A DNA stretch of 64,000 nt. It comes from an uncultured Ignavibacteria bacterium (GTDB lineage: Bacteria; Zixibacteria; MSB-5A5; SM1-73). The stretch spans positions 15,991-79,990 of the forward strand of contig CAZOJT010000009.1 of assembly GCA_964580215.1 (NCBI GenBank), given 5' to 3'. The position numbers and the translations under genes were made by a program. The notes under the pieces are model-generated. The model worked only from the letters and a program-made list of their open reading frames with translations. It was not told the origin of the DNA and ran no database searches. Positions 37,139-53,708 of the stretch are shown here, piece by piece. Position 1 is the first letter of the stretch. Each line of letters starts with the position of its first letter.

Positions 37139-37987
37139 ATGCAGCCAACTGTACAGTTGGATGAAAGAATCTCCAAATGTGAGGAGATTTTAGCTCACAA
37201 TCCCGAATCCATGATTTTTGCGGCCCTATCGGATGCCTATCGTAAGAAGGGAGATTTGGCTAAAGCGTTTCATGCCTGCACTCGAGGTTTAAAGCTTCAT
37301 CCCGATTACGGTCCCGGACATCTGGTGATGGCAAAGATCAACATGGAAAGAGGAATGTATTCCGAGGCGGAAAAGGAGCTTGCTCTGGCGGTTCAGGCAG
37401 ATGGCAAAACCAGAGCCACCGAGCTTCTTCTGGCTCAGATTCTCATGAAGAAAGATCAAATAAAAGATGCCAAAAAGATCTTAGAAAAGCTCAAAGCCAC
37501 TGATCCGGAAAATGAGGTGGTGGGCGAGCTTCTGAAGTCTATAAAGCAAAAAGCGGATTTCGGCAGGATCCATGGGACCGACAAGCCGGGCTACGATGTG
37601 ATGACGGTGCAGGAACGCTGGCATATAGAGAAGGTGGTGGATCTTAAAGACGGGGTGCATTATTTGAAATCCCTGCCGGACGTATTGGGGGCGTTGGTGG
37701 TAGGAGAGGATGGATTGGTGCTGGAGAGCAGGCTAAACCCCAATTTTAAAAAAGAGCGAATCGGGGCAATCGCCACTTGCATCACCCAATGTGTGAAAGA
37801 TGGGGTAGGTGGGATAGGGTTTGGAGAATATGAACAGGTCTTGATAGAGACGGAAAACCTTGAGTTTTGGATAATGAAATTCAACAACCAAGCTTTTGTA
37901 TTGTGTTGTGCCCCAGAAGCCAATCTGGGAGCTTTAAAGATAAGAGTGGGTGAGCTTCTGGAACACCTCTCCAGAAACCTTGAATAA
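37139..37987 (+). CDS. TPR repeat + Roadblock/LC7 domain fusion protein
   Basis: N-terminal TPR-like helices. C-terminal LGALVVGEDGLVLESRL…FWIMKFNNQAFVLCCAPEANLGALKIRV is the Roadblock/LC7 pattern. Confidence 0.7.
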   Translation: MQPTVQLDERISKCEEILAHNPESMIFAALSDAYRKKGDLAKAFHACTRGLKLHPDYGPGHLVMAKINMERGMYSEAEKELALAVQADGKTRATELLLAQILMKKDQIKDAKKILEKLKATDPENEVVGELLKSIKQKADFGRIHGTDKPGYDVMTVQERWHIEKVVDLKDGVHYLKSLPDVLGALVVGEDGLVLESRLNPNFKKERIGAIATCITQCVKDGVGGIGFGEYEQVLIETENLEFWIMKFNNQAFVLCCAPEANLGALKIRVGELLEHLSRNLE

Positions 37988-37999
37988 GAGGGAGGTAAG

Positions 38000-38929
38000 G
38001 TGAATTCTGATTACAGAGGGGAGTTGAGAGGAGTTCTTTTGGTCTCCTTTTTTATCATGGTGGTTCCACTGATATTCTTCCCCAGGGATTTCGGGCTGAA
38101 ATTGGATTGGTCGCTCTTTTTGCTTTTCGCTTTTGAGTTGGGCTGGTATATGCTGATCCTGTTTGTCATGTTTTCCAAAGCATCAGCTCCAAAGGTGTTT
38201 CTATTTGGCCTGTTGACTCTGGGCTATCGAATTGGCTTGGGCATTGGATTTGGTATACTTCTTCTGGTTATGTTTCCTTTGTCTTTATCCTCCTCGCTTC
38301 AGTTGGGAATCTGTCAATATATGCCGGCTTTTCTTCTTCAAGCTTTGATGTCTCCATTTGTGCTCAAATCACTTTTTGAATCCTCTATGGGGAAAACAAA
38401 AAAAGCTGAAGAGACGCCAATGGAGTTTGAGCGAAGGGTTGCAGAACCCCTTCCTTCTTCTTTTACTCCTGAAATATCAAAAGAGAGGTTAGATGGCAGA
38501 AGATCAATTCCCTCACAAAAGGAGATTAAGGTGGCAGGAGAAGACAAATTAGAAAACATTTTGCACTACCTGAGAGAGTATGCCGGAGTGAAGGCGGCTA
38601 TTCTGGTGGATCAAGAGGGTTTGGTGGTGGCGAAAGATTCTTTATCCGATTATGATCCGGAGAAGGTTGCCTCCTTCGCTCGGTGCTTGAAGGAGACGAA
38701 TGACCAAATACTTCACAAGATGGGAGAGAAGACCTCGGAACGAATTGGAATTTATACCCCGGATATGTGGATATGCTTAAATCAGATAGAAGGCTTCACA
38801 TTGGTGGTGGTGTCCGATCGCCGCACGGATGAGTTGCTTTCGGTTCGAATATTACAGTCCACCGGAATGATAAAGAAAATTCTTTCCGAGAGGTACCAGC
38901 AAAATATCCTAAAAGTTGTGGAGGCATGA
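38000..38929 (+). CDS. membrane-anchored (4-TM) Roadblock/LC7 domain protein
   Basis: N-terminal TM helices. C-terminal AAILVDQEGLVVAKDS…FTLVVVSDRRTDELLSVRI is a Roadblock fold. Confidence 0.65.
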   Translation: MNSDYRGELRGVLLVSFFIMVVPLIFFPRDFGLKLDWSLFLLFAFELGWYMLILFVMFSKASAPKVFLFGLLTLGYRIGLGIGFGILLLVMFPLSLSSSLQLGICQYMPAFLLQALMSPFVLKSLFESSMGKTKKAEETPMEFERRVAEPLPSSFTPEISKERLDGRRSIPSQKEIKVAGEDKLENILHYLREYAGVKAAILVDQEGLVVAKDSLSDYDPEKVASFARCLKETNDQILHKMGEKTSERIGIYTPDMWICLNQIEGFTLVVVSDRRTDELLSVRILQSTGMIKKILSERYQQNILKVVEA

Positions 38930-39281
38930 TATGTATAAAATATTGGAAGAGCTGAACAAAACTACCGGGATCAACGGCAGCATGGTAGTAGGAGAGGACG
39001 GCATCGTGATCGCCGCTGATTTAAATACCCAGCTTCAAGACGAGGCAGTGGGGGCTTTGGCGGCTTCCATCGTCAGCACGGTCAAGAAGTCGATGGAACG
39101 CCTTTCCAATGAGGATTTAAAACAGATAACCGTGGAGGCCGGCAAAGGCAAGTTATTTTTTACCGAAGTGGGGATAGGCATCCTGGCGGTCACCACGGAT
39201 TCTCAGGTAAATGTGGGGCTGGTTCGGCTGGAGATAAAAAATGCGGCGGAAAAAATAAAGCTTGCCCGAAAGTCCGCCTGA
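38916..39281 (+). CDS. Roadblock/LC7 domain protein (MglB paralogue, MglC-like)
   Basis: 121 aa: INGSMVVGEDGIVIAADL…ILAVTTDSQVNVGLVRLEI. Overlaps the upstream gene by 14 nt. Confidence 0.7.
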   Translation: MWRHDMYKILEELNKTTGINGSMVVGEDGIVIAADLNTQLQDEAVGALAASIVSTVKKSMERLSNEDLKQITVEAGKGKLFFTEVGIGILAVTTDSQVNVGLVRLEIKNAAEKIKLARKSA

Positions 39282-39313
39282 GACAGTCTGAAGTTGCCAA
39301 ATGGAGACAAAAG

Positions 39314-40300
39314 ATGGCATCTATAAATTATGCCTTCAAGGAGATCTCGTGTAAGATAGTTTTCTACGGTCCCGGACTTTCCGGAAAAACCACCAACCTC
39401 CAATACGTTCATCAAAAGATCCCGCCTCAGACCAGAGGGAACTTGATCTCTTTAGCCACTGATCAGGACAGAACCCTTTATTTTGATTTTCTTCCAGTGG
39501 ACATCGGCAAGATACATGGGTTTTCCACCAAGTTTCAGCTTTACACCGTCCCCGGGCAGGTGTATTACAATGCTACCAGAAAGCTGGTCTTAAGAGGTGT
39601 GGATGGTTTGGTCTTCGTGGCAGACTCCCAAAAATCCAAAATGGATGAGAACATGGAAAGCTTTCAGAATCTGGTGGAAAATCTGTCAGAATACGGATAC
39701 GACATAGACAAGATTCCTTTAGTGTTTCAATATAACAAAAGAGACTTTCCTGACATCAGCTCGTTGGAGGAACTAGGGAAAGCATTAAACCCTGAGGGGC
39801 TTCCCTACTTTGAAGCGGTTGCCACCAAAGGGATAGGTGTATTTGATGTCCTGAAGTGTATCAGCAAATTGGTCTTGGATCAAGCCAAACGTAGACAACT
39901 CTTTCCGGAAAGGGAGATTGAAACCGAGGAGGTTGAAAAAGCGCCGGCTTTGCTGAGTCTCTCCCAGATGCCGCAAACTGAGCAAATGGCAGAAGCTTTG
40001 AACTCCTCAACCCCTGTTGAGAACTTGACCCAAGAGGCGGTAACCACCATCACCCAAAAGAAACCTGAGCCTCCAGCAGAGGAGATAACCCCAAAGCCAC
40101 AAGATACCCACAAAGAAACAAAACCCGAAATCGAGTTGGATATAGGAGAAATCGCCGAGAAAGAAAAGGTGAAGATGGATCAGATTCCCTCCAGGGAGAG
40201 CCCCACCATAATAAGCTGGTCAGCCGGAAAATCCGGCAAAAAGACCAAATCGAAAGGATTCTTTTTATGGCGCTTTGTGAATAAACTTTTCAATAGATAG
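39314..40300 (+). CDS. mglA: MglA-family Ras-like GTPase with ~130-aa C-terminal extension
   Basis: Residues 1-195 align to Myxococcus MglA at roughly 60-65% identity: P-loop GPGLSGKTT, switch I DRTLYFDF (Arg finger), TVPGQ (catalytic Gln), NKRD. The extension is an acidic/Pro-rich linker ending in the basic amphipathic tail KSGKKTKSKGFFLWRFVNKLFNR. Confidence 0.85.
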   Translation: MASINYAFKEISCKIVFYGPGLSGKTTNLQYVHQKIPPQTRGNLISLATDQDRTLYFDFLPVDIGKIHGFSTKFQLYTVPGQVYYNATRKLVLRGVDGLVFVADSQKSKMDENMESFQNLVENLSEYGYDIDKIPLVFQYNKRDFPDISSLEELGKALNPEGLPYFEAVATKGIGVFDVLKCISKLVLDQAKRRQLFPEREIETEEVEKAPALLSLSQMPQTEQMAEALNSSTPVENLTQEAVTTITQKKPEPPAEEITPKPQDTHKETKPEIELDIGEIAEKEKVKMDQIPSRESPTIISWSAGKSGKKTKSKGFFLWRFVNKLFNR

Positions 40301-40309
40301 AGCGGAGGT

Positions 40310-40822
40310 GTGAAATTGAGACAGGAGGATCTGGTAATCTATGAGGAGCAGATCGAAAAGATAGAGAAAGCTCTGAGCAGGTTAATCGAGGATGCACAAG
40401 CCAAGTGTGTGCTCCTGGTGGACAAGGATGGCCATTTGATCACTCGTCAGGGTTTCACTCAATCTTTGGATACCACTGCCCTGGCGGCGCTTTTAGCTGG
40501 AAGCTTTGCCTCCACCCGAGAGATTGCCCGTCTGGTGGGAGAGCCGGAGTTTTCCGTTCTTTTCCATCAGGGCAAGAAGGATCATATTCATATCACTCTG
40601 GTGGGGGAAAGGACCATTCTGGCGGTCGTCTTTGATGATCGAACCACCATCGGCATGGTTCGGCTTTATGCTAAAGAGGCTACTGAAAATCTGGGAAAGG
40701 TTTTCTCTTCTGCCAACCGTCAGGACCGCCAAACTGAAGAGGAGAAGAAAACCGACTTAGATTCAGAGTTTTCGACTTCTTTAGAAAACAGGCTGGATGA
40801 TATCTTTTCTGAGCAATCCTGA
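40310..40822 (+). CDS. mglB: MglB (Roadblock/LC7 GAP of MglA)
   Basis: Aligns along its full length with M. xanthus MglB (VLLVDKDGHLI…DTTALAAL…GMVRLYAKEA…DDIFSE). Confidence 0.8.
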   Translation: MKLRQEDLVIYEEQIEKIEKALSRLIEDAQAKCVLLVDKDGHLITRQGFTQSLDTTALAALLAGSFASTREIARLVGEPEFSVLFHQGKKDHIHITLVGERTILAVVFDDRTTIGMVRLYAKEATENLGKVFSSANRQDRQTEEEKKTDLDSEFSTSLENRLDDIFSEQS

Positions 40823-40969
40823 TGGAGGATATCTCAAAAGTCCGAGAAAGGGAAGTTTTCAAAAGTGTATCATCGGGTTGAGCAGAGAAAGTGTGAACAC
40901 ATCTGAGAAACAACAAAATGAGCAGTCTCATCATATAGAGTGACCTTAAGTGAGATTCTGAGTTTTTAG

Positions 40970-42670
40970 GTGAAAGTTATGTCAAGCGAATTAGGAGAAA
41001 TGCTGGTTAAGGCAGGCAAGATATCGGGGGAACAGCTTACCCAGGCTTTGGACTTACAAAAAACCAACAAGGAGAAGTTAGGGGATATTCTGATTAAGAC
41101 GGGAGCCCTCTCCAGTGAGGAGGATCTCTCAGAATTTATCGGTAGGCAGTTAAATATTGGCGCTTTGAGGCTATCTGATATCGAGTTGAATCCAGAGGTG
41201 GTGAAGATGATTCCCCCAGACATTGCCAGAAAGTTCAACGTCATGGCCGTCGGCAAGCTGGGCAAGACTTTGATAGTAGCTATTTCGGATCCTAATAACA
41301 TTTACGTTTTAGACGCCATAAAGTTTATCACTGGATGCGCGGTTCAGCCGGTTATCAGCCCGGAGAAAGCCATCCAGAAGGCGATAGATACCTATTATCG
41401 GGATGCCGCAGGAATCGACCAGATACTTAAGGGACTGAAAGAAGGGGACCTGGAGGTGATTGAGGAGAGCGATGAGGTTCCCACCGAGCAGGACCTAATA
41501 TCCCAGGTGCAGGATAAACCTTTAGTCAAGCTGGTGGATTCCATCATCGGCGATGCCATCCGAAGAGGTTGTTCGGACATTCACATAGAAACCTATGAAA
41601 AAAGAATAAGGGTCAGATCCAGATTGGATGGAAATTTGCAAGAGATGTCTCCCCTACCTTTCAAATATCGTGCCGCTATCGTTTCCAGGATAAAGATAAT
41701 GGCGGATTTAGACATCTCTGAGAGAAGATTGCCTCAGGATGGCAGGATAAAGGTGAAGTTCGGTGATCGGGCAGTGGATCTAAGAGTATCCGTTCTTCCC
41801 ACCATATTTGGGGAGAAGGTGGTGATGCGAATTCTGGATCCGGGGAGCGTTAACGTCGATTTAACAAAATTAGGTTTCCCGCAACACTCTCTTAAGAAGT
41901 TCGAAAAAACCATCCACCTTCCCTACGGCATGATCCTGGTGACTGGTCCCACCGGAAGTGGGAAAACCACCACCCTCTATTCTGCCTTAAAACAGATTAA
42001 CACCACGGATATCAATATAATGACCGCCGAAGATCCGGTGGAGTTCAATTTCGAGGGAATAAATCAGGTGGCGGTGAAAAGCGAGATCGGACTGACCTTT
42101 GCCGCTTCTTTAAGGTCGTTTTTGAGGCAGGACCCGGACGTAATCATGGTAGGAGAGATCAGGGATACCGAGACCGCAGAGATCGCGGTGAGAGCCGCCT
42201 TAACCGGACATTTGGTCTTCTCCACCCTGCATACCAACGATGCTCCCAGCACCATCGACCGGTTGATCGATATGGACATTCCCAACTACCTGGTGGCTTC
42301 CTGTGTCAGGTTGATCATGGCTCAAAGGATGGTGCGCAAGATCTGCCCTAATTGTAAACACCAGGTTCAAATTCCCTCAGAGACCCTCCAGATGCTGGGA
42401 CTTGTTGACAACGAAATCAAAGGTCTCAAAGTTTATGAAGGGAAGGGTTGTTCGGAATGCAATAATACCGGCTATTCAGGAAGAACCGGTATTTTTGAGG
42501 TGATGCCCATGACTCCTGCAATTGAAAGGATGATAGTTTCCAGAGCCTCCAGCGCGGAGATAAGGCAACAGGCTATAACCGAGGGCATGCTCACTTTAAG
42601 AGTTGCCGCTTTGGATAAGTTAAAGCAAGGCGTTACCACTGTAGAAGAGGTTTTAGCAGTAACTGCTTGA
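40970..42670 (+). CDS. pilB: type IV pilus assembly ATPase PilB
   Basis: T2SSE_N domain, Walker A GPTGSGKTT, Asp box, tetracysteine motif CPNC…CSEC. Confidence 0.9.
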   Translation: MKVMSSELGEMLVKAGKISGEQLTQALDLQKTNKEKLGDILIKTGALSSEEDLSEFIGRQLNIGALRLSDIELNPEVVKMIPPDIARKFNVMAVGKLGKTLIVAISDPNNIYVLDAIKFITGCAVQPVISPEKAIQKAIDTYYRDAAGIDQILKGLKEGDLEVIEESDEVPTEQDLISQVQDKPLVKLVDSIIGDAIRRGCSDIHIETYEKRIRVRSRLDGNLQEMSPLPFKYRAAIVSRIKIMADLDISERRLPQDGRIKVKFGDRAVDLRVSVLPTIFGEKVVMRILDPGSVNVDLTKLGFPQHSLKKFEKTIHLPYGMILVTGPTGSGKTTTLYSALKQINTTDINIMTAEDPVEFNFEGINQVAVKSEIGLTFAASLRSFLRQDPDVIMVGEIRDTETAEIAVRAALTGHLVFSTLHTNDAPSTIDRLIDMDIPNYLVASCVRLIMAQRMVRKICPNCKHQVQIPSETLQMLGLVDNEIKGLKVYEGKGCSECNNTGYSGRTGIFEVMPMTPAIERMIVSRASSAEIRQQAITEGMLTLRVAALDKLKQGVTTVEEVLAVTA

Positions 42671-42801
42671 CCATATCAAAAGAGTTAAAAGGACATGGAG
42701 GGAAACAAAAGGCCGGTTTAAGAATCAAATTCCCAAGTCGATAATATATAAGGGAACTTTTTACCTTAAGATCTGGGATAAAGAAAAAACAGGAGCAAAA
42801 G

Positions 42802-43896
42802 ATGGTCACCTTACGGGAACTCTTGGAATTAATCGTGAAGAAGAATGCCTCCGACCTTCATTTAACTGTGGGTTCGCCACCCCGGTTGAGAATAGATGGA
42901 AAGCTGGTCAAAACCGATTTTGATATTTTAACCGCAGAGGGGACCAAAAAGCTGGCTTACAGCATAATGAATGAGAAGCAGAGGCAGAAATTTGAGGAGA
43001 AAAGCGAACTTGACCTTTCCTTTGGGATTGAAAACTTGAGCAGATTCAGGTGTAACGTTTTTATGCAGAGGGGGAATGTGGCGGTAGCTATAAGACAGAT
43101 CCCTTTCCGCATCCCCAGTTTCGAGGAGTTAGGCATACCCAAGGTGGTAGCCGAGTTGGCTGAGTTGCCCCGGGGTTTGGTGCTGATAACCGGACCCACC
43201 GGAAGCGGAAAATCCACCAGCTTAGCCGCCCTGATCAATAAGGTAAACCAGGAAAGATACTGTCACATCCTGACGGTGGAGGATCCCATCGAGTATCTTC
43301 ATCGGCACAATTGTTCACTGATCAACCAGAGGGAGGTTTATGCCGATACCCAGTCCTTTGCCAGTGCTTTAAAATACGCCCTAAGAGAGGATCCGGATGT
43401 GGTTTTAGTGGGAGAGATGAGAGATTTAGAAACCATGGAAGCCACCTTAAACATCTCCGAGACCGGACATTTAGCCTTTGCCACACTGCATACCAACTCC
43501 TGTGCCGAGTCGATTAACAGAATCATCGACGTGTTTCCCAGCAATCAGCAGGAGCAGGTTCGGGTTACCGTCTCCTTCGTTTTGCAGGCGGTGATAAGCC
43601 AGCAGTTGATCCCCCAAATAGGAGGAGGGAGGGTGTTGGCTTTGGAGATCATGATCTGCACACCGGCCATCAGGGCATTAATCCGGGATGATAAGATTCA
43701 TCAGATCTATAGCCTGATGCAGGCGGGACAGAAGTATGGCATGAGGACTATGAATCAATCTTTAGCCGAGCTTTATCTGAAACATAAAATCACCCTGGGT
43801 GACGCTATGGGAAGAAGCTCAAATGTGCAGGAGCTGAATGAGCTTTTAGCTAGAAAATCTGAGATAAGCCGGCAACGGCGTACAGCTGGAGTATAA
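42802..43896 (+). CDS. pilT: twitching motility retraction ATPase PilT
   Basis: N-terminal ASDLHLTVGSPPRLRIDG, Walker A GPTGSGKST, AIRALIRD motif. Confidence 0.9.
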   Translation: MVTLRELLELIVKKNASDLHLTVGSPPRLRIDGKLVKTDFDILTAEGTKKLAYSIMNEKQRQKFEEKSELDLSFGIENLSRFRCNVFMQRGNVAVAIRQIPFRIPSFEELGIPKVVAELAELPRGLVLITGPTGSGKSTSLAALINKVNQERYCHILTVEDPIEYLHRHNCSLINQREVYADTQSFASALKYALREDPDVVLVGEMRDLETMEATLNISETGHLAFATLHTNSCAESINRIIDVFPSNQQEQVRVTVSFVLQAVISQQLIPQIGGGRVLALEIMICTPAIRALIRDDKIHQIYSLMQAGQKYGMRTMNQSLAELYLKHKITLGDAMGRSSNVQELNELLARKSEISRQRRTAGV

Positions 43897-44040
43897 TTCG
43901 CAGGAGTGAAATTAAGGAAAACTCAAAACAAAAGCATAACTTTTCAGATAGCGCAGACATTTACTCTAAGAAGCCTGATTAGGCTCTTGTGGAGAGAATC
44001 GGGCTTTAGGGGTGACAGTTTCTGAGGGAAGGAGGTTAAA

Positions 44041-45240
44041 TTGCCAGTTTTCACCTATAAGGGAAGGACATTAGGGGGAACTCAAGTTACAGGTGAGTTG
44101 AAGGTAAAAAACCGGGCTGAGTTGGAAAGGATCCTGCGGAGCAAAAAGGTTTTAGTGTCTCAGGTCTCCACCAAGCCTTCTCAGATAAGCATAAGAATCG
44201 GCACCGGAATAAAGAAGGTGCATATCTCCCGATTCACCCGGCAATTCGCCACCATGATCGGAGCCGGACTCCCCATGGTCCAATGTCTGGAGATATTATC
44301 CCAGCAGATGGAATCAGCAGAACTGAGAAGGGTCGTCGGCGAGATAAAGGAAAGCGTGCAGGCAGGTACCACCTTGTCAGAAGCCTTAGCCCGACACAAA
44401 AAGGTCTTTGATGATCTTTATGTTAATATGGTGGACGCGGGTGAGATCGGAGGAGCTTTAGACACCATTCTGGTTCGACTGGCCATTTACCGGGAAAAGG
44501 CAGATGCTCTGGTGCGTAAGGTAAAAGGAGCCTTAATCTATCCGGCGGTGGTGATGACCGTAGCTATCGGAGTCACCTTCATCATGTTGACTTACATAGT
44601 TCCCGTCTTTGCCAAGATGTTTTCCGGTCTGGGCGCGGAGTTACCTGCCCCCACTCAGTTCATTCTGTCTTTGAGTGCATTCATCCGAGGCAATATCTTA
44701 ACCGGAGTAGTTCTGTTGGTCCTTTTGATCATCGCATATAAATTTTATTCAAGGACCGATAAAGGCAGATACAATATTGATTACCTGAAGTTGCGAATTC
44801 CGCTTATTGGGGATTTGATAAGGAAGAGTTCCATCGCAAGATTTTCGCGCACACTGGGAACCTTGATCTCCTCAGGAGTTTCCATTCTGGATGCGCTGGA
44901 CATCACCGCCCGCGCATCGGGCAATCGGGTGATACATGATGCCATAAAAAAATCGGTTCTCTCCATCGCAGAAGGAGAAACCATAACCCAGCCTTTGAAG
45001 CAGTGTGGAGTCTTTCCTCCCATGGTTACCCAGATGATCTCAGTGGGAGAAAAAACCGGAGGGCTGGATGAGATGCTTTCCAAGATTGCCGACTTCTATG
45101 ATGAGGAGGTGGACGCCGCCGTGGCGGCTTTAACCTCCGTCATTGAGCCGGTGATCATAGTTTTCATGGGAGTGGTGATCGGAGGAATCTTGATAGCCAT
45201 GTACCTCCCTATGTTCGATATTATTGGAAAGATAAGCTAA
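44041..45240 (+). CDS. pilC: type IV pilus platform protein PilC (GspF family)
   Basis: Two T2SF repeats; 3 TM. Confidence 0.85.
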   Translation: MPVFTYKGRTLGGTQVTGELKVKNRAELERILRSKKVLVSQVSTKPSQISIRIGTGIKKVHISRFTRQFATMIGAGLPMVQCLEILSQQMESAELRRVVGEIKESVQAGTTLSEALARHKKVFDDLYVNMVDAGEIGGALDTILVRLAIYREKADALVRKVKGALIYPAVVMTVAIGVTFIMLTYIVPVFAKMFSGLGAELPAPTQFILSLSAFIRGNILTGVVLLVLLIIAYKFYSRTDKGRYNIDYLKLRIPLIGDLIRKSSIARFSRTLGTLISSGVSILDALDITARASGNRVIHDAIKKSVLSIAEGETITQPLKQCGVFPPMVTQMISVGEKTGGLDEMLSKIADFYDEEVDAAVAALTSVIEPVIIVFMGVVIGGILIAMYLPMFDIIGKIS

Positions 45241-45727: not shown

Positions 45728-47497
45728 ATGCAGATGGATGTGAACAAATCAGAACTCTCTTATTCTAAAATCCCCTGGCTTCTTTTGTCACGCCTCTCCA
45801 TATTTATTCTGTTGTTGATAATTGTGGTTCTCTTTTTCCATGTGCCGGATTTTCTGGTGCTGCCCTTCACCATTTACTCTTTTGTAACCCTATCTCTTCT
45901 TTTGCTCATTGCGTTCGACCAGAGACGAACTCAAAAGCTACTATTTAATGCCGTAGTGATTTTGCAACTCATCTTGGAGATTGTAGTCGAGACCGGGGTG
46001 GTTTATCATACCGGTGGCATAGACAGTCCCTTCGCCATTCTTTTTATTTTGACCATCCTCTCCGCCAGCCTGATTTATCGATTGATCGGAAGTGTGCTTT
46101 TGGCTGGTTTATCCAGCCTGGCTTATGTTTCTATTCTCTGGTTTGAGGGAGGATTGGAATTTTCCTTCAAAAGCCTACTTTTGATTAGCGATGCCTCATT
46201 TTATGAGGCTTTTCTTTACATCTGCACCTTCTTTCTGGTGGCTTTTATAAGTGGCTATCTATCGGAAAAATTGAAAGTGAAAAGGGAAGAGTTGTGGAGT
46301 GCTTCTCTGGAGTTAAGCAAGATTAAAACGGATACGGACGATATACTAAGGCATCTGAAAAGCGGTCTGATAACCGTCGACACCTGGGGAAGAATCGTTT
46401 ATTTTAACCGGGCGGCAGAGGAGATACTGGGATATTCTGAAGTGGAGGTGAAAGGGAAAGATTGCCGGGACGTGTTCAAGCAAAGAATGCCCCAACTGGC
46501 GGAAAAAATATTTCAACCGATAAAATTCAACCAGGAGGATTCGAGGGGTCTCCTGCATATCGAAGGTAAAAACAACCGAAAGATTCCCATCGGGATAAGC
46601 ACATCCATTCTGAGAGATAGAGAAAAGGGAGCGAGGGGAGTGATCGCCATATTTCAAGATATCACCGAGGTGATGAAATTGGAGGAAAGACTCAGGATGG
46701 CCGACAGATTGGCCGCAGTGGGTGAACTCTCAGCCGGGATCGCTCATGAGATACGGAATCCTTTAGCCTCCATCTCCGGGTCGGTGGAAGTTTTAAAGGG
46801 GGAGCTTTCCTTGGCCGAGGAGGATCGAAGACTTTTGGATTTGATTATCAAAGAGAGCGGAAGGCTGAATCGGATTCTGACAGATTTCTTAGAATATGCT
46901 CGTATCGGTCCTTCGATGTTGAGCAAGGTGGAGTTAGTCCGTATTTTAGATGATGTTATAGAGATCGCTAAGAAGCATCCGTCTTTTGAAGAAAATATCT
47001 CAATAAAGAAAATCTTCTCTTCAGATGTCCGATATGTTTTAGGTGAAGAGAATCAGATAAAGCAGATATTTCTAAACCTTTTAGTAAATGCCATGGAATC
47101 AATGGAAGTCAGGTGGGGAGAGATATTGATAACTGACCGGACCTTAAATCAATTAGATCAATTTTACTTTACCCAGGAGGAGCCGGAGGAATCGGAATGG
47201 ATTGCTGTTGCCATCGCTGATCAAGGAAAAGGAATGACCGAGGAACAGAAGGAAAAAGTTTTTTCGCCATTTTATTCCACCAAAAAGAATGGCACCGGTC
47301 TGGGACTGTCGATAGTGCAGAGATTGATAAACAATCTGGGTGGAAGAATAGAATTTCGCAGTCAGCCGGGCAAAGGCTCTGTATTTGTACTTTATCTACA
47401 GAAATATGTGAAAAGGAAAGCCAGGTTATCTCAAACGGTTCACATCGCAAATTTAGCAGACTTAGATGTTTGCACTCCAGAACTTCGGCAAACATAA
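45728..47497 (+). CDS. membrane sensor histidine kinase (PilS/NtrB-like; 6-TM, PAS, HisKA, HATPase_c)
   Basis: H-box AGIAHEIRNPLASI; G boxes GTGLGLSIV and GKGSVF; PAS-like segment. Confidence 0.8.
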   Translation: MQMDVNKSELSYSKIPWLLLSRLSIFILLLIIVVLFFHVPDFLVLPFTIYSFVTLSLLLLIAFDQRRTQKLLFNAVVILQLILEIVVETGVVYHTGGIDSPFAILFILTILSASLIYRLIGSVLLAGLSSLAYVSILWFEGGLEFSFKSLLLISDASFYEAFLYICTFFLVAFISGYLSEKLKVKREELWSASLELSKIKTDTDDILRHLKSGLITVDTWGRIVYFNRAAEEILGYSEVEVKGKDCRDVFKQRMPQLAEKIFQPIKFNQEDSRGLLHIEGKNNRKIPIGISTSILRDREKGARGVIAIFQDITEVMKLEERLRMADRLAAVGELSAGIAHEIRNPLASISGSVEVLKGELSLAEEDRRLLDLIIKESGRLNRILTDFLEYARIGPSMLSKVELVRILDDVIEIAKKHPSFEENISIKKIFSSDVRYVLGEENQIKQIFLNLLVNAMESMEVRWGEILITDRTLNQLDQFYFTQEEPEESEWIAVAIADQGKGMTEEQKEKVFSPFYSTKKNGTGLGLSIVQRLINNLGGRIEFRSQPGKGSVFVLYLQKYVKRKARLSQTVHIANLADLDVCTPELRQT

Positions 47498-47615
47498 ATG
47501 CCTGCACTTCAAATTTCTTAGAAAACTACTTTTTGAAAGACGATGTAAATCCAGTTTGACAAAGAAACAATGGTGGTCCTCCGCCTGCTGCGATCCCAGA
47601 TGATCGAAACTCATA

Positions 47616-47645
47616 GCCGCCCACTTCAGGGCGGTTATTTTTTTC
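47616..47645 (+). terminator. rho-independent terminator
   Basis: gccgccc…gggcggt stem followed by TATTTTTTT. Confidence 0.5.
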
Positions 47646-47756
47646 AGATTCTGCTTGGAAATTGGCAAAATCCGGTTATATTAAATTAGAGAACACGGAA
47701 AACTCTAAATATAACTCAGGCGTTTTATGGCAATTCCGATTTTTGGGAAAATAACC

Positions 47757-48698
47757 ATGAAAAAGTTTTTGATTCTCTGCTCATTGATTTTTACCCTGTT
47801 TATCTCAAATCCCCTACAAGCAAGAATCATCCACGTGCCTGCTGATTTCTCCACCATTCAGGCGGGCATCAACGGTGCAGTCGATGGCGATACGGTCTTG
47901 GTGGCAAGAGGACATTACTACGAAAGGATAAATTTTGCCGGTACTGCCATCTTAGTTGCCAGCAATTTTATTTTTGATAATGACACAACCACCATCGATT
48001 CCACTGTCATTGACGGTGAAAATACTGGTACTGTAGTCGTATTTCCGGGATCAGCCTCAACTCTTCAAGGATTCACTATCACTAACGGATATTCAACGGA
48101 GGGTGAAAGAACCTACGGCTGGTCTGGTAAGTCTATAATTACCAACAATATCATGACTGGCGACTATGCCAATTACGCGGATGCCGAAATTCACCGTGAG
48201 GATGGCCCACCTGTGATAACGAACAATATTATCATTGGTAACGATGGTGATGGAATCTACTGTAAAGGTTACGTGCCGAAAATCACCAAGAATACCACAT
48301 CAAACAACTTCACTGCCCCTGGCGGAGGAATCTCCTGCTGGTCCGTTACCCCCACAATCAAACATAATGTCGTAACAAATAACTCTGGTAATGGTATCTA
48401 CTGCGAAACATCTTCACCTACAATTGACAGCAACAATGTAATTAACAATGGTGGTAGTGGAATCCGTTGCGAGGAGTTCTCCTCGCCCACCATCGGTAGT
48501 AATGCTATTCTCAGCAACTCATTTGGTGGGATCTATTGCAGGGAATATTCGTCGCCTACCATCATCAACAATACTATAATCGATAACTCTACCGAAATTG
48601 AGCGTGGTGGAATCTTCTGCCAGTGGGGTTCCTCTTTAAAGACACTTAGTCATTTATTTTGGACCATTTGTGTCTGTCATTTAAATATAACAAATTAA
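47757..48698 (+). pseudogene. right-handed parallel beta-helix (PbH1) repeat protein, apparently 3'-truncated
   Basis: Signal peptide, then ~6 PbH1 repeats (NNIIIGNDGDGIYC, NNSGNGIYCE, NNGGSGIRCE). The ORF ends in non-homologous residues and is followed by ~430 bp of repeat-rich non-coding DNA. No C-terminal sorting domain is present. Confidence 0.45.
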
Positions 48699-49074
48699 TA
48701 AAATCCAATCAAGAAATTTATCACATTTGTAGAGACCAAATACAAATCATACACTTTTTGAGAAAAAGATTAGGCAACACCCAAGAGAGAAGATATGCGT
48801 ATGCATTCATACGAATCTTTCCCTCCTCTGGAGTCTCTTTTTTCTCAATTAGATTAAACTCCTCCGGGGGGAGATGTCCATTGTTTTTTTATCTCATCCC
48901 GCCAAAGGCGGGACTCCTCTGCCCTCAATCTTTGACCTCCATCTTTTCCACCCCGCCTGTCAATCTTGGCGGACAGGCAATCCGCTACCTCCTTTTTTCC
49001 ATTTCTTCCATAAACCAACAGGTCAGTTGACTCAAATGAGGGGATACCATCTCCCTTCCTTTTCCCACAAATTC

Positions 49075-49159
49075 CCACCTTTTTGCTTGACTTTTTTGTA
49101 CCTTGGGGTTAATTTATATGGAGCGATTGGTTTAAGTAATTAAATAGGAGGATTCCAAA
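49075..49159 (+). promoter_or_regulatory. duplicated promoter/5' UTR of the BNR genes (second copy at 51075-51158)
   Basis: Near-identical 85-nt blocks containing TTGACT and an AGGAGG SD precede both genes. Confidence 0.4.
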
Positions 49160-51031
49160 ATGTTAAACAAAGGGCTTGGTTTGATCCTGATGGTATTAAT
49201 GATGGCTGGGTTTGTATTTATCAGTTGTAGCAAAAAATCGACCAAACATGAACCACCCCCAAACCATGCCCCGCAAGGCTGGTTCTGGCAAAATCCTCTG
49301 CCTCAGGGAAATGACCTTAGAAGTGTTTGTTTTACAGACGCCAATACCGGCTGGGCAGTAGGAGCTGATGGCACAATCCTACACACCACCAATGGTGGAA
49401 GCAATTGGAATGGACAGAATTCTGGAACTTCGAATTGGCTTGAGAGTGTCTATTTTACAGATGCCAATACTGGGTGGGCAGTAGGAGAGGCTGGCACAAT
49501 CTTACACACCACCGACGGAGGAAGTAGCTGGAATCGTCAGAGTTCTGGAACTTCAAATGTTCTTTATAGTGTCTATTTTACAGATGCCAATACCGGCTGG
49601 GCAGTAGGATACCCTGGCACAATCTTACACACCACCGATGGTGGAAGCGATTGGAATGCTCAGAATTCTGGAACTTCAAATTGGTTTTATAGTGTCTATT
49701 TTACAGATGCCAATACTGGCTGGGCAGTAGGATACTCTGGTACAATCGTACACACCACCGATGGTGGAAGCAATTGGAATTCTCAAACCTCTGGAACTTC
49801 ACATTACCTTGAAAGTGTCTATTTTGCGGATGCCAATACTGGCTGGGCAGTAGGAGATGATGGCACAATCTCACACACCACCAATGGAGGAAACAGCTGG
49901 TATGCTCAGAGTTCTGGAACCTCACACGGGCTTCTTAGTGTCTGTTTCACAGATGCCAATACCGGCTGGGCAGTAGGATGGGATGGCACAATCTTACACA
50001 CCACCGATGGTGGAAGCAACTGGAATGCTCAAACCTCTGGAACTACTTCAGATTACCTTGCAGGTGTCTATTTTACAGATGCCAACACTGGCTGGGCAGT
50101 AGGAATGCGTGGCACAATGTTACACACCACCGATGGAGGAAGCAGTTGGAATACTCAGAGTTCTGGAACTTTTAAATCCCTTGAAAGTGTCCATTTTACA
50201 GACGCCAATACCGGCTGGGCAGTAGGATGGGATGGCACAATCTTACACACCACCGATGGAGGAAGCAACTGGAATCTTCAAAGTTGTGGAACCACATCGG
50301 ATCTTAGTAGTGTGTATTTCACAGATGGCAATACTGGCTGGGCAGTAGGAGGTTGGGGCGGGATCGGCACAATCCGACACACCACCGATGGAGGAAGCAA
50401 CTGGAATGCTCAAACCTCTGGAGCTTCACATTACCTTGCAAGTGTCTATTTTACGGATGCCAATACCGGCTGGGTAGTAGGATCTGGTGGCACAATCTTA
50501 CACACCACCGATGGAGGAAGCAACTGGAATGCTCAAGCCTCTGGAACTTCACATTACCTTGAAAGTGTCTATTTTGCGGATGCCAATAACGGCTGGGTAG
50601 TAGGATGGGATGGCACAATCTTGCATACCACCGATGGAGGAAGCAAGTGGAATCCTCAACCTTCTGGAACTTCACGGGACCTTCATAGTGTCTATTTTAC
50701 AGATCCCGATACCGGCTGGGCAGTAGGGGATGGTGGCACAATCTTACGCGCCACTCGTGGTGGTGGAAGCAATTGGCATGCTCAGGATTCTAAAACCACC
50801 AGTCGCCTTAACAGCGTGCATTTCACAGATGCCAATACTGGCTGGGTAGTAGCTGAGGATGGACAAATCGTACACACCACCTCTGGTGGATACAACTGGA
50901 GTCACCAGAATTCTAAAACCGGTTGGGACCTTTACAGCTTGCATTTCACAGATGCCAATACCGGCTGGGCAGTAGGAAGGTATGGGACAATCTTGCACAC
51001 TACAACAGGAGGCGAAACTTCTGGGGAATAA
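49160..51031 (+). CDS. BNR/Ycf48-like lipoprotein, ~15 tandem ~38-aa propeller blades (double beta-propeller), paralogue A
   Basis: Lipoprotein signal (FISC). Repeats follow FTDANTGWAVG..GTILHTTDGGSNWN.Q.SGTS..L.SVY, with BNR/Asp-box TDGGSNW. Confidence 0.8.
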   Translation: MLNKGLGLILMVLMMAGFVFISCSKKSTKHEPPPNHAPQGWFWQNPLPQGNDLRSVCFTDANTGWAVGADGTILHTTNGGSNWNGQNSGTSNWLESVYFTDANTGWAVGEAGTILHTTDGGSSWNRQSSGTSNVLYSVYFTDANTGWAVGYPGTILHTTDGGSDWNAQNSGTSNWFYSVYFTDANTGWAVGYSGTIVHTTDGGSNWNSQTSGTSHYLESVYFADANTGWAVGDDGTISHTTNGGNSWYAQSSGTSHGLLSVCFTDANTGWAVGWDGTILHTTDGGSNWNAQTSGTTSDYLAGVYFTDANTGWAVGMRGTMLHTTDGGSSWNTQSSGTFKSLESVHFTDANTGWAVGWDGTILHTTDGGSNWNLQSCGTTSDLSSVYFTDGNTGWAVGGWGGIGTIRHTTDGGSNWNAQTSGASHYLASVYFTDANTGWVVGSGGTILHTTDGGSNWNAQASGTSHYLESVYFADANNGWVVGWDGTILHTTDGGSKWNPQPSGTSRDLHSVYFTDPDTGWAVGDGGTILRATRGGGSNWHAQDSKTTSRLNSVHFTDANTGWVVAEDGQIVHTTSGGYNWSHQNSKTGWDLYSLHFTDANTGWAVGRYGTILHTTTGGETSGE

Positions 51032-51158
51032 GAGCATGATAGCCATTTTTCGGTTTGCTCGCTTGGAGGATTCCCACCTTATTGCTTGACTTTTTTGTAT
51101 CTTGGGGTTAATTTATATGGAGCGATTGGTTTAAGTAATTAAATAGGAGGATTCCAAA

Positions 51159-53033
51159 ATGTTAAACAAAGGGCTTGGTTTGATCCTGATGGTATTAATG
51201 ATGGCTGGGTTTGTATTTATCAGTTGCAGCAAAAAATCGACCAAACATGAACCACCCCCAAACCCTGCCCCGCAAGGCTGGTTCTGGCAAAATCCTCTGC
51301 CTCAGGGAAATACCCTTAGAAGTGTCTGTTTTACAGACGCTAATACTGGCTGGGCAGTAGGAAGTAGTGGCACAATCTTACACACCACCGATGGAGGAAG
51401 CAACTGGAATGCTCAAACCTCTGGAAATGGGGATTACCTTTATAGTGTCTATTTTACAGATGCCAATACCGGCTGGGCAGTAGGGGGGGAGGAGGCGGAT
51501 GAGGAGTATGGCACAATCTTACACACCACCGATGGTGGAAGCAGCTGGAATGCTCAAACTTCTGGAACCTCATATGACCTTCTTAGTGTCTATTTTACAG
51601 ATGCCAATACCGGCTGGGCAGTAGGAGACTATGGTACAATCTTACACACCACCGATGGAGGAAACAACTGGAATCCTCAACCTTCTGGAACTTCATGTAA
51701 CCTTAACAGTGTGTATTTTACAGATGCCAATACCGGCTGGGCAGTAGGATGGGATGGCAAAATCTTACACACCACCGATGGAGGAAGCAACTGGAATCCT
51801 CAAACCTCTGGAACCTCACACGACCTTTTAAGTGTCTATTTTACAGATGCCAATACCGGCTGGGCAGTAGGATGGGATGGCACAATCTTACACACCACCG
51901 ATGGGGGAAGCAACTGGAATCTTCAAAGTTCTGGAACTGGAGAGCGGCTTCAGAGTGTGTATTTCACAGATGCCAATACTGGCTGGGCAGTAGGAGTGCG
52001 TGGCACAATCTTACACACCACCGATGGAGGAAGCAACTGGAATCCTCAAACCTCTGGAACCTCACACGACCTTTTAAGTGTCTATTTTACAGATGCCAAT
52101 ACCGGCTGGGCAGTAGGATGGGCTGGCACAATCTTACACACCACCGATGGAGGAAGCAACTGGAATGCTCAGAGTTCTGGAACTTCAAAGGGGCTTTATA
52201 GTGTCTATTTTACACATGCCAATACCGGCTGGGCAGTAGGATACTCTGGCACAATCTTACACACCACCGATGGAGGAAGCAACTGGAACACTCAAAGTTC
52301 TGGAACTTCAACTTACCTTTATAGTGTCTATTTTACAGATGCCAATGCCGGCTGGGCAGTAGGATACTCTGGCACAATCTTACACACCACCGCTGGAGGA
52401 AGCAACTGGAATGCTCAAACTTCTGGAACTTCAAAGAGGCTTTTAAGTGTCTATTTTACAGATGTCAATACCGGCTGGGCAGTAGGATACTCTGGTACAA
52501 TCTTACACACCACCAATGGAGGAAACAGCTGGTATGCTCAGAGTTCTGGAACCTCACCCGGGCTTCTTAGTGTCTGTTTTACAGATGCCAATACCGGCTG
52601 GGCAGTAGGATGGGATGGCACAATCTTGCATACCACCGATGGAGGAAGCAACTGGAATCCTCAAACTTCAGGAACTTCATATGGCCTTTATAGTGTCTAT
52701 TTTACAGATGCCAATACCGGCTGGGCAGTAGGAGGGGGTGGCACAATCTTACACACTCACGATGGTGGAAGCAACTGGAATGCTCAACCTTCTGGAACCT
52801 CAGATGACCTTAACAGTGTCTATTTTACAGATGCCAATACCGGCTGGGCAGTAGGAGATGATGGCACAATCTCACACACCACCAATGGAGGAAACAGCTG
52901 GTATGCTCAGAGTTCTGGAACCTCACACGGGCTTCTTAGTGTCTGTTTTACAGATGCCAATACCGGCTGGGCAGTAGGAAGTGGTGGCACAATCTTGCAT
53001 ACCACAACTGGAGGCAAAACTTCTGGGGACTAA
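51159..53033 (+). CDS. BNR/Ycf48-like lipoprotein, paralogue B (tandem duplicate)
   Basis: The first ~280 nt, including the signal peptide, are near-identical to paralogue A. After that the two diverge at variable blade positions. Confidence 0.8.
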   Translation: MLNKGLGLILMVLMMAGFVFISCSKKSTKHEPPPNPAPQGWFWQNPLPQGNTLRSVCFTDANTGWAVGSSGTILHTTDGGSNWNAQTSGNGDYLYSVYFTDANTGWAVGGEEADEEYGTILHTTDGGSSWNAQTSGTSYDLLSVYFTDANTGWAVGDYGTILHTTDGGNNWNPQPSGTSCNLNSVYFTDANTGWAVGWDGKILHTTDGGSNWNPQTSGTSHDLLSVYFTDANTGWAVGWDGTILHTTDGGSNWNLQSSGTGERLQSVYFTDANTGWAVGVRGTILHTTDGGSNWNPQTSGTSHDLLSVYFTDANTGWAVGWAGTILHTTDGGSNWNAQSSGTSKGLYSVYFTHANTGWAVGYSGTILHTTDGGSNWNTQSSGTSTYLYSVYFTDANAGWAVGYSGTILHTTAGGSNWNAQTSGTSKRLLSVYFTDVNTGWAVGYSGTILHTTNGGNSWYAQSSGTSPGLLSVCFTDANTGWAVGWDGTILHTTDGGSNWNPQTSGTSYGLYSVYFTDANTGWAVGGGGTILHTHDGGSNWNAQPSGTSDDLNSVYFTDANTGWAVGDDGTISHTTNGGNSWYAQSSGTSHGLLSVCFTDANTGWAVGSGGTILHTTTGGKTSGD

Positions 53034-53067
53034 GACCAGGACTACTCAATCATCCAGGAATTTCAGC

Positions 53068-53202
53068 CTGTCTGAGAACTACCCTGATCCATTCAATCCT
53101 CAGACAGCCATCCAGTGCACTTTAGCTAAACGAAGCAAAGTCACCCTCAAGGTTTATGATTTATTGGGTCAGGAAATCAGGCTGTGTTTCAGGTTGGGAT
53201 AA
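53068..53202 (+). pseudogene. orphan, out-of-frame and 3'-truncated T9SS C-terminal sorting domain remnant
   Basis: Encodes LSENYPDPFNPQTAIQCTLAKRSKVTLKVYDLLGQEIR, then terminates early. It is in the +1 frame relative to BNR-B and lies after that gene's stop codon. Confidence 0.6.
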
Positions 53203-53227
53203 CAATATGCCAACACAACAAATCACA

Positions 53228-53257
53228 AAAAAATCAGGGTGGAGTTGAAGCTCCACC
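53228..53257 (-). terminator. rho-independent terminator of atpC (minus strand)
   Basis: gggtggag…ctccaccc stem; the minus strand reads hairpin + TTTTTTT. Confidence 0.5.
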
Positions 53258-53291
53258 CCTACAATCTTTAATTCGCACCAAGAATTTCTGT

Positions 53292-53708
53292 TTATTCCTG
53301 TTGACCCATTTGGATAGCTTCACAAAGACGGCATCTGTTCTCTGCTCGATGCAAAGCCGTCAGAGCACGGGGAATGTCGATTTCCTTCTCCTTTGATCTC
53401 AACCTTTGCCTGGCTCGCTCCAAAGCTTTCTTGGCTCTTTCGTAATCTATGTCATCAACGAATTCAATGGAATGTGCTAAAATAGTTACCTGGTTCTTAA
53501 ACACCTCCATGAAGCCACCACCGATGGCAAAGAACAACTCCTGATTTTTGTCATCTTTTACCGTGAGCTTGCCCGGAACCAAAGCGGTGATCAAAGGAGC
53601 ATGATCGGTTAGAACCCCCAGGTATCCTTCAGAGCCGGGAGCGATGAGGGAGACCACGTCATCTTCATAAAATATTTTCTCTGGCGTTACGATAGTCAGC
53701 AGATACAT
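53292..53708 (-). CDS. atpC: F1 ATP synthase epsilon subunit
   Basis: 138 aa with a beta-sandwich N-terminus and helical C-terminus pattern, in the last position of the atp operon. Confidence 0.85.
   Translation of the reverse strand: MYLLTIVTPEKIFYEDDVVSLIAPGSEGYLGVLTDHAPLITALVPGKLTVKDDKNQELFFAIGGGFMEVFKNQVTILAHSIEFVDDIDYERAKKALERARQRLRSKEKEIDIPRALTALHRAENRCRLCEAIQMGQQE

Follow-up and report, generated by a model that had tools for sequence, protein, structure and literature searches.

Two neighbouring propeller-lipoprotein genes in a Zixibacteria genome, with blades in concerted evolution and a candidate diversified face

How can two adjacent genes share almost identical 5' ends and 28 closely similar repeats, and still differ from repeat to repeat at the same few residues? 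This question is raised by a tandem pair of genes, here called gene A and gene B, in a metagenome-derived genome (assembly GCA_964580215.1, contig CAZOJT010000009.1, positions 15,991 to 79,990 of the forward strand). The whole stretch of 64,000 nt is referred to as the window, and the coordinates of the features are collected in Table 1. A previous reading of the DNA letters (the sequence-only reading) had described the pair as recently duplicated Ycf48-like lipoprotein genes that diverge at specific blade positions. The analysis reported here suggests that the two products are probably a pair of extracytoplasmic binding lipoproteins, derived from cargo of the type IX secretion system (T9SS) and duplicated in tandem, in which the blades evolve in concert and the top face of the propellers stays diverse.

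Genes A and B lie on the same strand at an offset of 1999 bp, and the proteins that they encode are 76% identical. Tandem Repeats Finder reports a single array with a period of 123 nt through both genes (49322-53005, 29.6 copies, 75% matches). At the protein level, each gene encodes a signal and a linker of 17 residues; the closing strand GWFWQN comes next, before 14 blades of 41 aa. The 14 blades are made up of 13 full units and a C-terminal unit of 32 aa, which is completed by the N-terminal closing strand, so the earlier count of 15 blades per gene has to be corrected. The blade register is SVYFTDANTGWAVGxxGTILHTTDGGSNWNxQxSGTSxxLx. The Asp-box hairpin is defined as S/T-x-D-x-G-x-x-W between strands 3 and 4 (PMC2716378, PMC9218822), and a motif of this kind, TTDGGSNW, is present in 26 of the 28 blades. 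Two blades have insertions (B2 with +6 aa and A9 with +3 aa), both in loop 2-3. A second period of 141 nt at 51363-51625 is due to the acidic six-residue insertion (GEEADEEY) in the strand 2-3 loop of B2.

An AlphaFold2 model of the gene A protein, built with an alignment of 52 sequences, has a predicted local distance difference test score (pLDDT) of 93.9 and a predicted template modelling score (pTM) of 0.89. In this model the protein forms two seven-bladed Asp-box/Ycf48-like propellers with four strands in each 41-aa unit. In the DSSP assignment, strands 1, 2, 3 and 4 of a blade cover positions 40-41 with 1-4, 10-14, 19-22 and 30-32, respectively; positions 15-17 form a tight turn, 23-29 the Asp-box hairpin and 33-39 a loop. 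The top Foldseek match in the PDB is 2ymu, a "highly repetitive propeller" of 14 WD40 blades (E 1.5e-19). It is followed by double propellers of the xyloglucanases of glycoside hydrolase family 74 (GH74), with a TM-score over the query (TMq) of 0.60-0.65, 13-16% identity, E about 1e-18 and a root-mean-square deviation (rmsd) of about 7 Angstrom. The Ycf48 matches are single propellers with a TM-score over the target (TMt) of 0.73-0.76 and 22-25% identity. A sequence search of the PDB returned Ycf48 proteins only (2xbg and 5oj5, at 3e-25). A single-sequence AlphaFold2 model of the gene B protein was discarded, having a pLDDT of 68 and meaningless beta-helix matches in Foldseek.

The blades of the two genes do not correspond by position. 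In the codon alignment of all 28 blades, nucleotide identity ranges from 62 to 98% without positional orthology; blades at the same place in A and B share 69-89% of their nucleotides, which is the same range as for non-corresponding pairs. The closest pairs are A5/B13 (97.6%), B4/B6 (94%) and B10/B13 (93.5%), and the mean pairwise blade identity is 0.71 in A and 0.80 in B. The idea of simple recent duplicates diverging at specific blade positions is therefore not upheld in this form: variable positions do recur, but blades in equivalent places are no closer than other pairs and have a scaffold synonymous difference of 0.21. The longest exact matches at non-homologous offsets are a 107-nt tract common to A5 and B13 and a 116-nt tract repeated within gene B. 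Both are longer than anything in 400 null simulations that kept the column-specific match probabilities (95th percentile 66 nt, maximum 101 nt). Long exact tracts at such offsets thus point to ectopic gene conversion, and at least these two record one recent ectopic conversion or duplication event between the genes and one inside gene B. This agrees with the proposal of ongoing gene conversion made earlier. The locus is a mosaic of 28 blade cassettes under concerted evolution, and near-identity of the two genes is confined to 241 nt at the 5' end.

These 5' ends have sharp limits. Upstream of the start codon, 87 of 89 bases (-89 to -1) are identical between A and B, and the similarity is abruptly gone beyond -89. 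Within the coding region, 150 of the first 152 bases agree when the genes are aligned at the offset of 1999 nt; past +152 the identity is about 75-90% per 20-nt window and no longer exceeds that of the gene body from about +330 onward. Overall, the 5' 241 nt are 98.3% identical vs about 82% for the gene body. The duplicated unit of 1999 bp hence takes in the upstream region, as had been claimed. The claimed extent (85 nt upstream and the first ~280 nt of the gene) fits on the upstream side, but the near-identical coding part is only 152 nt long and is followed by a decaying shoulder. No further copy of the gene or of the common 5' segment was found elsewhere in the window. A sigma-70 consensus scan gave no match in the 89-nt segment, so promoter function is presumed from its position only. 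A scan for terminator-like sites between A and B found none. The near-identical 5' ends may be the result of a recent duplication after which the blades were scrambled by ectopic conversion, or A and B may be older paralogs whose 5' parts were converted recently.

Seven blade positions (15, 16, 31, 33, 38, 39 and 41, counted from SVYF) each have an entropy of more than 2 bits; of the rest, ten do not vary at all and most hardly do. The seven positions carry 64% of all non-consensus residues, as against 29% on average and 37% at most under a uniform null (20,000 draws), and the same seven rank highest when either gene is taken by itself. A fixed scaffold with a few recurrent variable residues per blade, as originally described, is thus confirmed, and the variability is not scattered uniformly. 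The proportion of nonsynonymous differences (pN) at these positions is 0.55-0.59 vs an overall proportion of synonymous differences (pS) of 0.19-0.32, a ratio of 1.9-2.9 when measured in the gene that was not used for choosing the positions. The ratio of nonsynonymous to synonymous rates (dN/dS) of the 34 scaffold codons is 0.29; therefore, purifying selection acts on both genes, and neither is a pseudogene. The seven residues form signatures rich in Asp, Ser, Tyr, Trp, Gly and Asn, and 25 distinct signatures occur among the 26 full blades. Corresponding blades of A and B have 1.46 of 7 signature residues in common vs 1.21 of 7 for non-corresponding pairs. Sub-signatures recur in different combinations (WD or YS at 15-16; HYE or HDL at 38, 39 and 41), which fits short-tract mosaicism.

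The seven positions fall in the strand 2-3 turn, at the end of strand 4, in the strand 4-1 loop and at the first residue of strand 1. In Asp-box propellers, loop 3-4 contains the Asp-box and, together with loop 1-2, makes up a conserved bottom face; the variable top face, which is functional in the known cases, is built from loop 2-3 and from the inner strands at their N-terminal ends (Quistgaard and Thirup 2009, PMC2716378). By strand topology, all seven hypervariable positions and both blade insertions would lie on the top face, and the invariant TDANT and DGG loops would lie on the bottom face. The excess of pN over pS suggests diversifying selection at the seven positions, a signal that is inseparable in these sequences from the selective retention of old differences against homogenisation. 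The "diversifying ligand-binding face" of the sequence-only reading is therefore kept in part: the variability maps to one face by topology and pN is 1.9-2.9 times pS, but retention of old differences would give the same signal.

A mechanism that would account for these observations is as follows. Continuing ectopic gene conversion or unequal recombination, acting inside each gene as well as between A and B, would homogenise all 28 cassettes and the 5' ends of both genes, while the seven top-face positions of each blade would stay different despite this exchange. The two proteins would then present two differently patterned double-propeller surfaces for the non-catalytic binding of extracytoplasmic ligands, which could be glycans or proteins. 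Non-catalytic ligand binding is the most likely role of the pair.

The export signal supports a location outside the cytoplasm. Both proteins begin with MLNK-GLGLILMVLMMAGFVFIS-C23, which has the pattern of a lipoprotein signal (a basic residue, a hydrophobic core and a lipobox, VFISC, with Cys23), so the earlier call of a lipoprotein signal in both genes is upheld at the level of pattern. The signal fits the PROSITE-style lipobox rule. In the gene A model, residues 3-22 form a helix that is followed by a disordered stretch at 22-34. The two proteins are probably lipidated, extracytoplasmic and anchored to a membrane. Neither has an intact in-frame T9SS C-terminal sorting domain (CTD); gene A ends in ..TTGGETSGE and gene B in ..TTGGKTSGD. 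Directly behind gene B there is a decayed CTD remnant that is 71% identical (tblastn, E 1.4e-17) to the CTD of a Zixibacteria homolog (L002a, SM1_73). It is out of frame with gene B, is ended by a stop and has lost its C-terminal half; its score against Pfam Por_Secre_tail (PF18962) is 17.4 bits, below the cutoff of 27. Gene A stops at the codon equivalent to that of gene B and has no remnant behind it, and none was detected after the beta-helix gene at 48.7-49.07 kb. The remnant and the lipobox together appear to record a switch of the export route, by which a former T9SS cargo became a lipoprotein. Type IX secretion is still in use in the organism, as shown by an M6 (immune inhibitor A-like) metallopeptidase in the window (273-2138, - strand) that has a FlgD-Ig domain and an intact T9SS CTD (…KMILLK).

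The pair lies in a slot between a convergent PilS-like kinase gene and atpC. In two relatives (L093 and L095, with AtpD 92-94% identical) the kinase gene adjoins atpC, with neither a beta-helix nor a propeller gene between them; the segment at 47.5-53.3 kb (47497-53292) is therefore a lineage-specific insertion. A third relative (L097, AtpD 90%) has a BNR_2-dockerin gene in the same place. The slot between the convergent kinase and atp operons is a variable site for genes of secreted or surface proteins. The simplest order of events would begin with the acquisition of a T9SS cargo gene into this slot, from a very large family that occurs mainly in the Fibrobacteres-Chlorobi-Bacteroidetes (FCB) group. 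The sorting domain would then have been lost, leaving the remnant, and a lipobox signal and linker would have been gained. Finally, the 1999-bp unit, with its upstream region, would have been duplicated in tandem.

Membership in the Ycf48-like family is clear at the domain level. Pfam PSII_BNR (PF14870, cutoff 27) matches gene A with 261.9 bits (9.7e-78, 8 stretches) and gene B with 372.6 bits (1.9e-111, 12 stretches), so the label "Ycf48-like" holds for the domain. It does not extend to a photosystem II (PSII) assembly factor, since each protein has 14 blades and the scores against the NCBIfam equivalog NF010237 (Ycf48) are 283 and 301 bits, under the curated cutoff of 326. In a search of 5.8 billion proteins, more than 7,800 of the 8,000 candidates scored matched at E <= 1e-10, with a best identity of 62%. 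The homologs are found mainly in Bacteroidota, Ignavibacteria, Zixibacteria, KSB1 and related phyla (the FCB group), and those with names are labelled "YCF48-related protein" or "photosystem II stability/assembly factor-like". Most are 700-1090 aa long with a T9SS sorting domain; a typical member has about 700 aa, a signal peptidase I (SPI) signal and a T9SS CTD. The AtpD of the window is 92-94% identical to Zixibacteria proteins, and every named match is from Zixibacteria, a phylum that is not known to contain oxygenic phototrophs. No PSII gene was present among the 13 open reading frames (ORFs) of the window that were scanned against Pfam. Literature searches for Ycf48 together with type IX secretion or in non-photosynthetic bacteria gave nothing relevant within the library covered, and no paper on the function of the YCF48-related double-propeller family was found.

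Within this family, 14 blades are the norm across 80 genome loci, and two or three members stand in tandem at 9 of the 80 loci, three of them in Zixibacteria. A search of these loci for the neighbour genes of the window found no synteny; the genes are thus homologous but the loci are not orthologous. The T9SS-cargo homologs (such as the SM1_73 pair, LJVD01000005.1) resemble genes A and B in the Pfam domain, the 14 blades, the 41-aa period and the closing strand GWFWQNPLPQGN, with 56-63% identity, and they often occur in tandem pairs or trios with homogenised ends. The closest relatives, from Zixibacteria SM1_73 (59-63% identity), have an SPI-type signal (..AQ) directly before the closing strand and an intact CTD. 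Unlike them, the window genes have no T9SS CTD and carry a lipobox and the 17-aa linker instead of the SPI signal. The lipoprotein form is uncommon but not unique, because about 6 of 120 homologs are CTD-less lipoprotein look-alikes. The window genes also differ in internal blade identity (0.80 in B and 0.71 in A vs a family median of 0.49); the value for B is the highest of 113 members scored, and a few others reach 0.72-0.78. In the other tandem arrays (Table 1), the upstream/signal-peptide and CTD ends are 85-100% identical at the nucleotide level and the propeller bodies 50-65%. Homogenised ends with a diversified body are thus a recurrent pattern of the family, from which the window pair is set apart by its highly repetitive body.

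Table 1. Coordinates of the features discussed in the text (window positions unless another locus is named)
Feature	Position	Strand	Remarks
Gene A	49160-51031	+	ORF of 623 aa; lipoprotein, 14 blades, double seven-bladed Asp-box/Ycf48-like propeller
Gene B	51159-53033	+	ORF of 624 aa; 14-blade paralog, the more homogenised copy
Blade array A1-A14 of gene A	49322-51028	+	
Gene A upstream region	49071-49159	+	Copy 1 of the common 89-nt segment; presumed promoter and ribosome-binding site AGGAGG
Gene B upstream region	51070-51158	+	Copy 2 of the common 89-nt segment
Lipoprotein signal peptide of gene A	49160-49228	+	Read from sequence: MLNKGLGLILMVLMMAGFVFIS before C (Cys23), then 17-aa linker SKKSTKHEPPPNHAPQ
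107-nt exact repeat, blade A5 copy	49841-49947	+	Equals 52842-52948, offset 3001; crossover site of the 3001-bp variant
107-nt exact repeat, blade B13 copy	52842-52948	+	
116-nt exact repeat, blade B4/B5 copy	51761-51876	+	Equals 52007-52122, offset 246
116-nt exact repeat, blade B6/B7 copy	52007-52122	+	
Decayed T9SS CTD remnant	53059-53181	+	NFSLSENYPDPFNPQTAIQCTLAKRSKVTLKVYDLLGQEIR; directly 3' of the gene B stop, other frame; first 41 residues only
Right-handed beta-helix (NosD-like) protein gene	47727-48698	+	Pfam Beta_helix 1.6e-17; same lineage-specific segment
Tandem array, Ignavibacteriaceae trio (L023)	5609-12121		Alike ends
Tandem array, Zixibacteria (L012)	9995-14361		Alike ends
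Tandem array, Zixibacteria (L002)	281-4539		Alike ends
Tandem array, Zixibacteria (L009)	8450-12818		Alike ends
Tandem array, Ignavibacteria (L005)	7857-12142		Alike ends

The locus can be compared with two known regimes of repeat evolution. Highly repetitive propellers have a blade identity above ~60% and arise continuously in all lineages, and the Asp-box/PSII-like lineage is among the listed families (Pereira and Lupas 2022, PMC9218822). Genes A and B, at 0.71 and 0.80, exceed this limit (the mean is used here, and the median in PMC9218822). Like 2ymu of Nostoc punctiforme, they encode a 14-blade double propeller with internal identity above 60%; the blades of 2ymu are WD40, whereas those of the window are Asp-box blades. 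What goes beyond the highly repetitive propellers is the exchange between two adjacent genes and the defined hypervariable top-face set. Both are reminiscent of the het-d/het-e/nwd WD40 genes of Podospora anserina, which show concerted evolution, hypervariable positions on the interaction face and repeat instability (Paoletti, Saupe and Clave 2007, PMC1805685; Chevanne et al. 2010). In both systems the repeats evolve in concert within and between paralogs and a few positions per repeat are hypervariable; at the window, exchange within and between the paralogs is seen in the lack of positional orthology and in the 107-nt inter-gene and 116-nt intra-B tracts. The fungal proteins are cytosolic NOD-like receptors (NLRs) of the NACHT-WD40 type with four selected positions and a variable repeat number, whereas the window proteins are predicted extracytoplasmic Asp-box lipoproteins with seven positions, at which selection is putative, and a fixed 14 blades. 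The effector and NACHT/NB-ARC parts of an NLR are absent; only PSII_BNR/BNR domains and no signalling domain were found. Read in this way, the case matches the regimes of the highly repetitive propellers and of het-e/nwd, and it differs in the propeller superfamily, the cellular compartment and the switch of export route.

Public assemblies were consulted for the structure of the locus itself. At least nine samples or runs have contigs that match the window at 100% identity, yet not one contig extends across the entire locus. Those that enter from the left break off at 48755 (four Logan contigs), 49182, 49664, 49926 (in the A5/B13 repeat) and 51859 (in the B4/B6 repeat), and those that enter from the right do so at 51739, 52873 and 52950-52993. 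The exact gene A protein is found on contig Ga0315549_1001779 of the Joint Genome Institute (JGI), which stops at 51859 inside the 116-nt repeat. In sample 3300031654, one contig contains gene A, the intergenic region and B1-B4, and another runs from B4 through B14 into the atp genes, including atpC. Each agrees with the window at 100% identity, and they overlap by 121 nt, beginning with a 22-mer that is unique in the window. In sample 3300031554, the 30-kb contig Ga0315544_1000682 (L086/L100) matches the window to 49947 and from 52842, and lacks exactly 3001 bp. It encodes a six-blade A/B hybrid of 290 aa in which the context switches from A to B inside the 107-nt repeat. This variant may be an assembly collapse or a real recombinant or deletion allele. 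The expectation that the locus is prone to recombination and assembly trouble is met by these data, as most assemblies break at the repeats and one contig has a 3001-bp collapse or deletion across A5/B13. The suggested search for sequence variants in public data yielded this one shortened hybrid, which fits an allele and a collapse alike. The two-gene structure is well supported, and the exact continuity in blade B4 less strongly so. As a separate observation, the four Logan contigs that end at 48755 (SRR9705733, SRR9700624, SRR9707989 and SRR9700625) all stop just past the beta-helix gene, and this common stop suggests a repeated or polymorphic element in 48756-49070. The same interval holds two terminator-like hairpins (48967-48987 and 49040-49054).

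Several observations weigh against the favoured reading of a concertedly evolving pair with a selected top face. Measured against their own synonymous sites, the seven codons have a dN/dS of 1.1-1.8 only. Relaxed constraint in loops would put variability at the same positions, the homologs vary most at these positions too, and part of the variability pattern is therefore a property of the whole family. The placement on one face comes from strand topology and not from measured geometry. The pairwise homoplasy index (PHI) test, applied to the blade alignment of 123 nt, gives weak p-values that change with the scan width of the test (0.43, 0.12 and 0.017), with incompatibility high at all distances. 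Complete gene B is on no contig of the public collection, and continuity through B4 depends on the 121-nt overlap of two JGI contigs. The first of these points are what would be expected if the blades were alike simply from the recent amplification of one blade followed by gene duplication, with the variable loop residues drifting freely, unselected for diversity and with no particular role of their variability. This neutral account also has in its favour that highly repetitive propellers, Asp-box/PSII-like ones included, arise continuously in all lineages (PMC9218822), and that the variable positions are at loops and edges. However, the synonymous rate sets the ceiling for free drift, and the seven positions have a pN that is near saturation and well above overall pS; the long exact tracts at non-homologous offsets speak of continuing exchange and not of a single amplification; and 25 of 26 signatures are still distinct despite that exchange. 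Neutral recent amplification is thus considered unlikely, though it deserves to be taken seriously. The last point could mean that the tandem pair, or the number of blades in gene B, is a chimeric expansion of short reads through the 123-nt repeats, since all the short-read assemblies found break at repeats (49926 and 51859; from the right 51739 and 52873-52993) and Ga0315544_1000682 runs through the hybrid without the 3001 bp. Against such an artefact, the JGI contigs that span A1-A14 to B1-B4 and B4-B14 to atpC are 100% identical and their overlap starts at a unique 22-mer. Both ORFs are intact with the 14 blades that are the norm in 80 genomes, and the signatures are unique in 25 of 26 blades, so the sequence cannot come from copying. 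In several samples contigs break on either side of the A5/B13 repeat, giving two contexts, so both genes are present. An assembly artefact is accordingly improbable.

Other readings concern what the proteins are. A GH74-like glycoside hydrolase, in which the propellers form a cleft that cleaves a beta-glucan such as xyloglucan, is suggested by the Foldseek results, because GH74 enzymes are the best full-length structural matches after 2ymu and also consist of two tandem seven-bladed Asp-box propellers. The structural agreement is, however, at 13-16% identity and an rmsd of about 7 Angstrom, and no GH74 protein is among the PDB sequence matches at E <= 1e-3. GH74 chains have 700-780 aa for 14 blades and far longer loops that form the catalytic cleft, whereas the blades here are minimal units of 41 aa without cleft-building loops. 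No acidic pair stands out as invariant in just two blades, as the conserved Asp residues recur in every blade as part of the scaffold or Asp-box. With no sequence-level match and such minimal blades, the enzyme reading was rejected as very improbable. A genuine PSII assembly factor of the Ycf48/HCF136 type would agree with the strongest named matches (PF14870 and NF010237; PDB 2xbg and 5oj5 at 3e-25) and with the structure of each half, which has seven blades like 2xbg, 5oj5 and 8am5 and belongs to one Pfam family with them (TMt about 0.75). Cyanobacterial Ycf48 is likewise a lipoprotein (PMC8038367). Ycf48 is, however, a single propeller of ~330 aa from oxygenic phototrophs with a conserved Arg patch that binds D1, while the window proteins are double propellers of 623/624 aa with 14 blades and not 7. 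Their scores of 283/301 bits miss the equivalog cutoff of 326, the host is a Zixibacterium by AtpD, and the close homologs are T9SS cargo of Ignavibacteria, Bacteroidota, KSB1 and Zixibacteria. The true-Ycf48 reading was rejected, its probability being negligible. The same holds for hypermutation of the blades by a diversity-generating retroelement (DGR). Such an element would explain why variability is limited to a few codons in a near-identical scaffold, but the differences in the B4/B6 tract include T/G, G/T and G/C without adenine on either side, which is incompatible with adenine-specific mutagenesis. The flanks encode a beta-helix protein, a kinase and atpC, and no reverse transcriptase was among the 13 ORFs scanned against Pfam, a scan that covered part of the window. 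The DGR-target reading was rejected on the non-adenine differences in these near-identical tracts and has next to no chance of being correct.

An extracytoplasmic pair of binding lipoproteins with concertedly evolving blades therefore stays the preferred reading. The family to which it belongs is routinely mislabelled as PSII assembly factors, and the locus is an unusually clean case in which the split between scaffold and variable residues is sharp, blade exchange is caught in the act and the switch of export route has left a visible remnant. If the top face sets ligand specificity, the family would amount to an evolvable binding scaffold of natural origin and the tandem arrays would be repertoires for polymers or partners in sediments. 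A wider proposal is that the YCF48-related double propellers of the FCB group form an extracytoplasmic recognition repertoire through cassette shuffling, top-face selection and homogenised export signals. They would then be the cell-surface equivalent, in prokaryotes, of the NLR WD40 proteins of fungi or of cassette-built receptors, and the 3001-bp variant would be a segregating recombinant. This proposal is speculative and distinctly doubtful. Loci of this kind are systematically broken or collapsed in short-read metagenome assemblies, which makes copy number in metagenome-assembled genomes unreliable.

Some other genes of the window are unusual in their own right. A 579-aa protein (6741-8480, + strand) has both cohesin and type I dockerin domains, which is unusual outside cellulosome-producing Firmicutes; a dockerin is also present on the BNR_2 protein of the relative L097. 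At 37139-45240 (+ strand), a cluster of genes for Roadblock/LC7 (MglB-like) proteins and small Ras/Arf-like GTPases lies beside type IV pilus genes. The pilus genes encode PilB/PilT-like T2SSE and PilC-like T2SSF proteins and are accompanied by a PilS-like kinase gene. The cluster keeps its synteny across the Zixibacteria relatives and may be a polarity or motility module. Finally, a gene at 24760-28977 (- strand) encodes a 1405-aa fusion of BadF/BcrA-type ATPase domains and a CoA-enzyme activase (DUF2229) domain.

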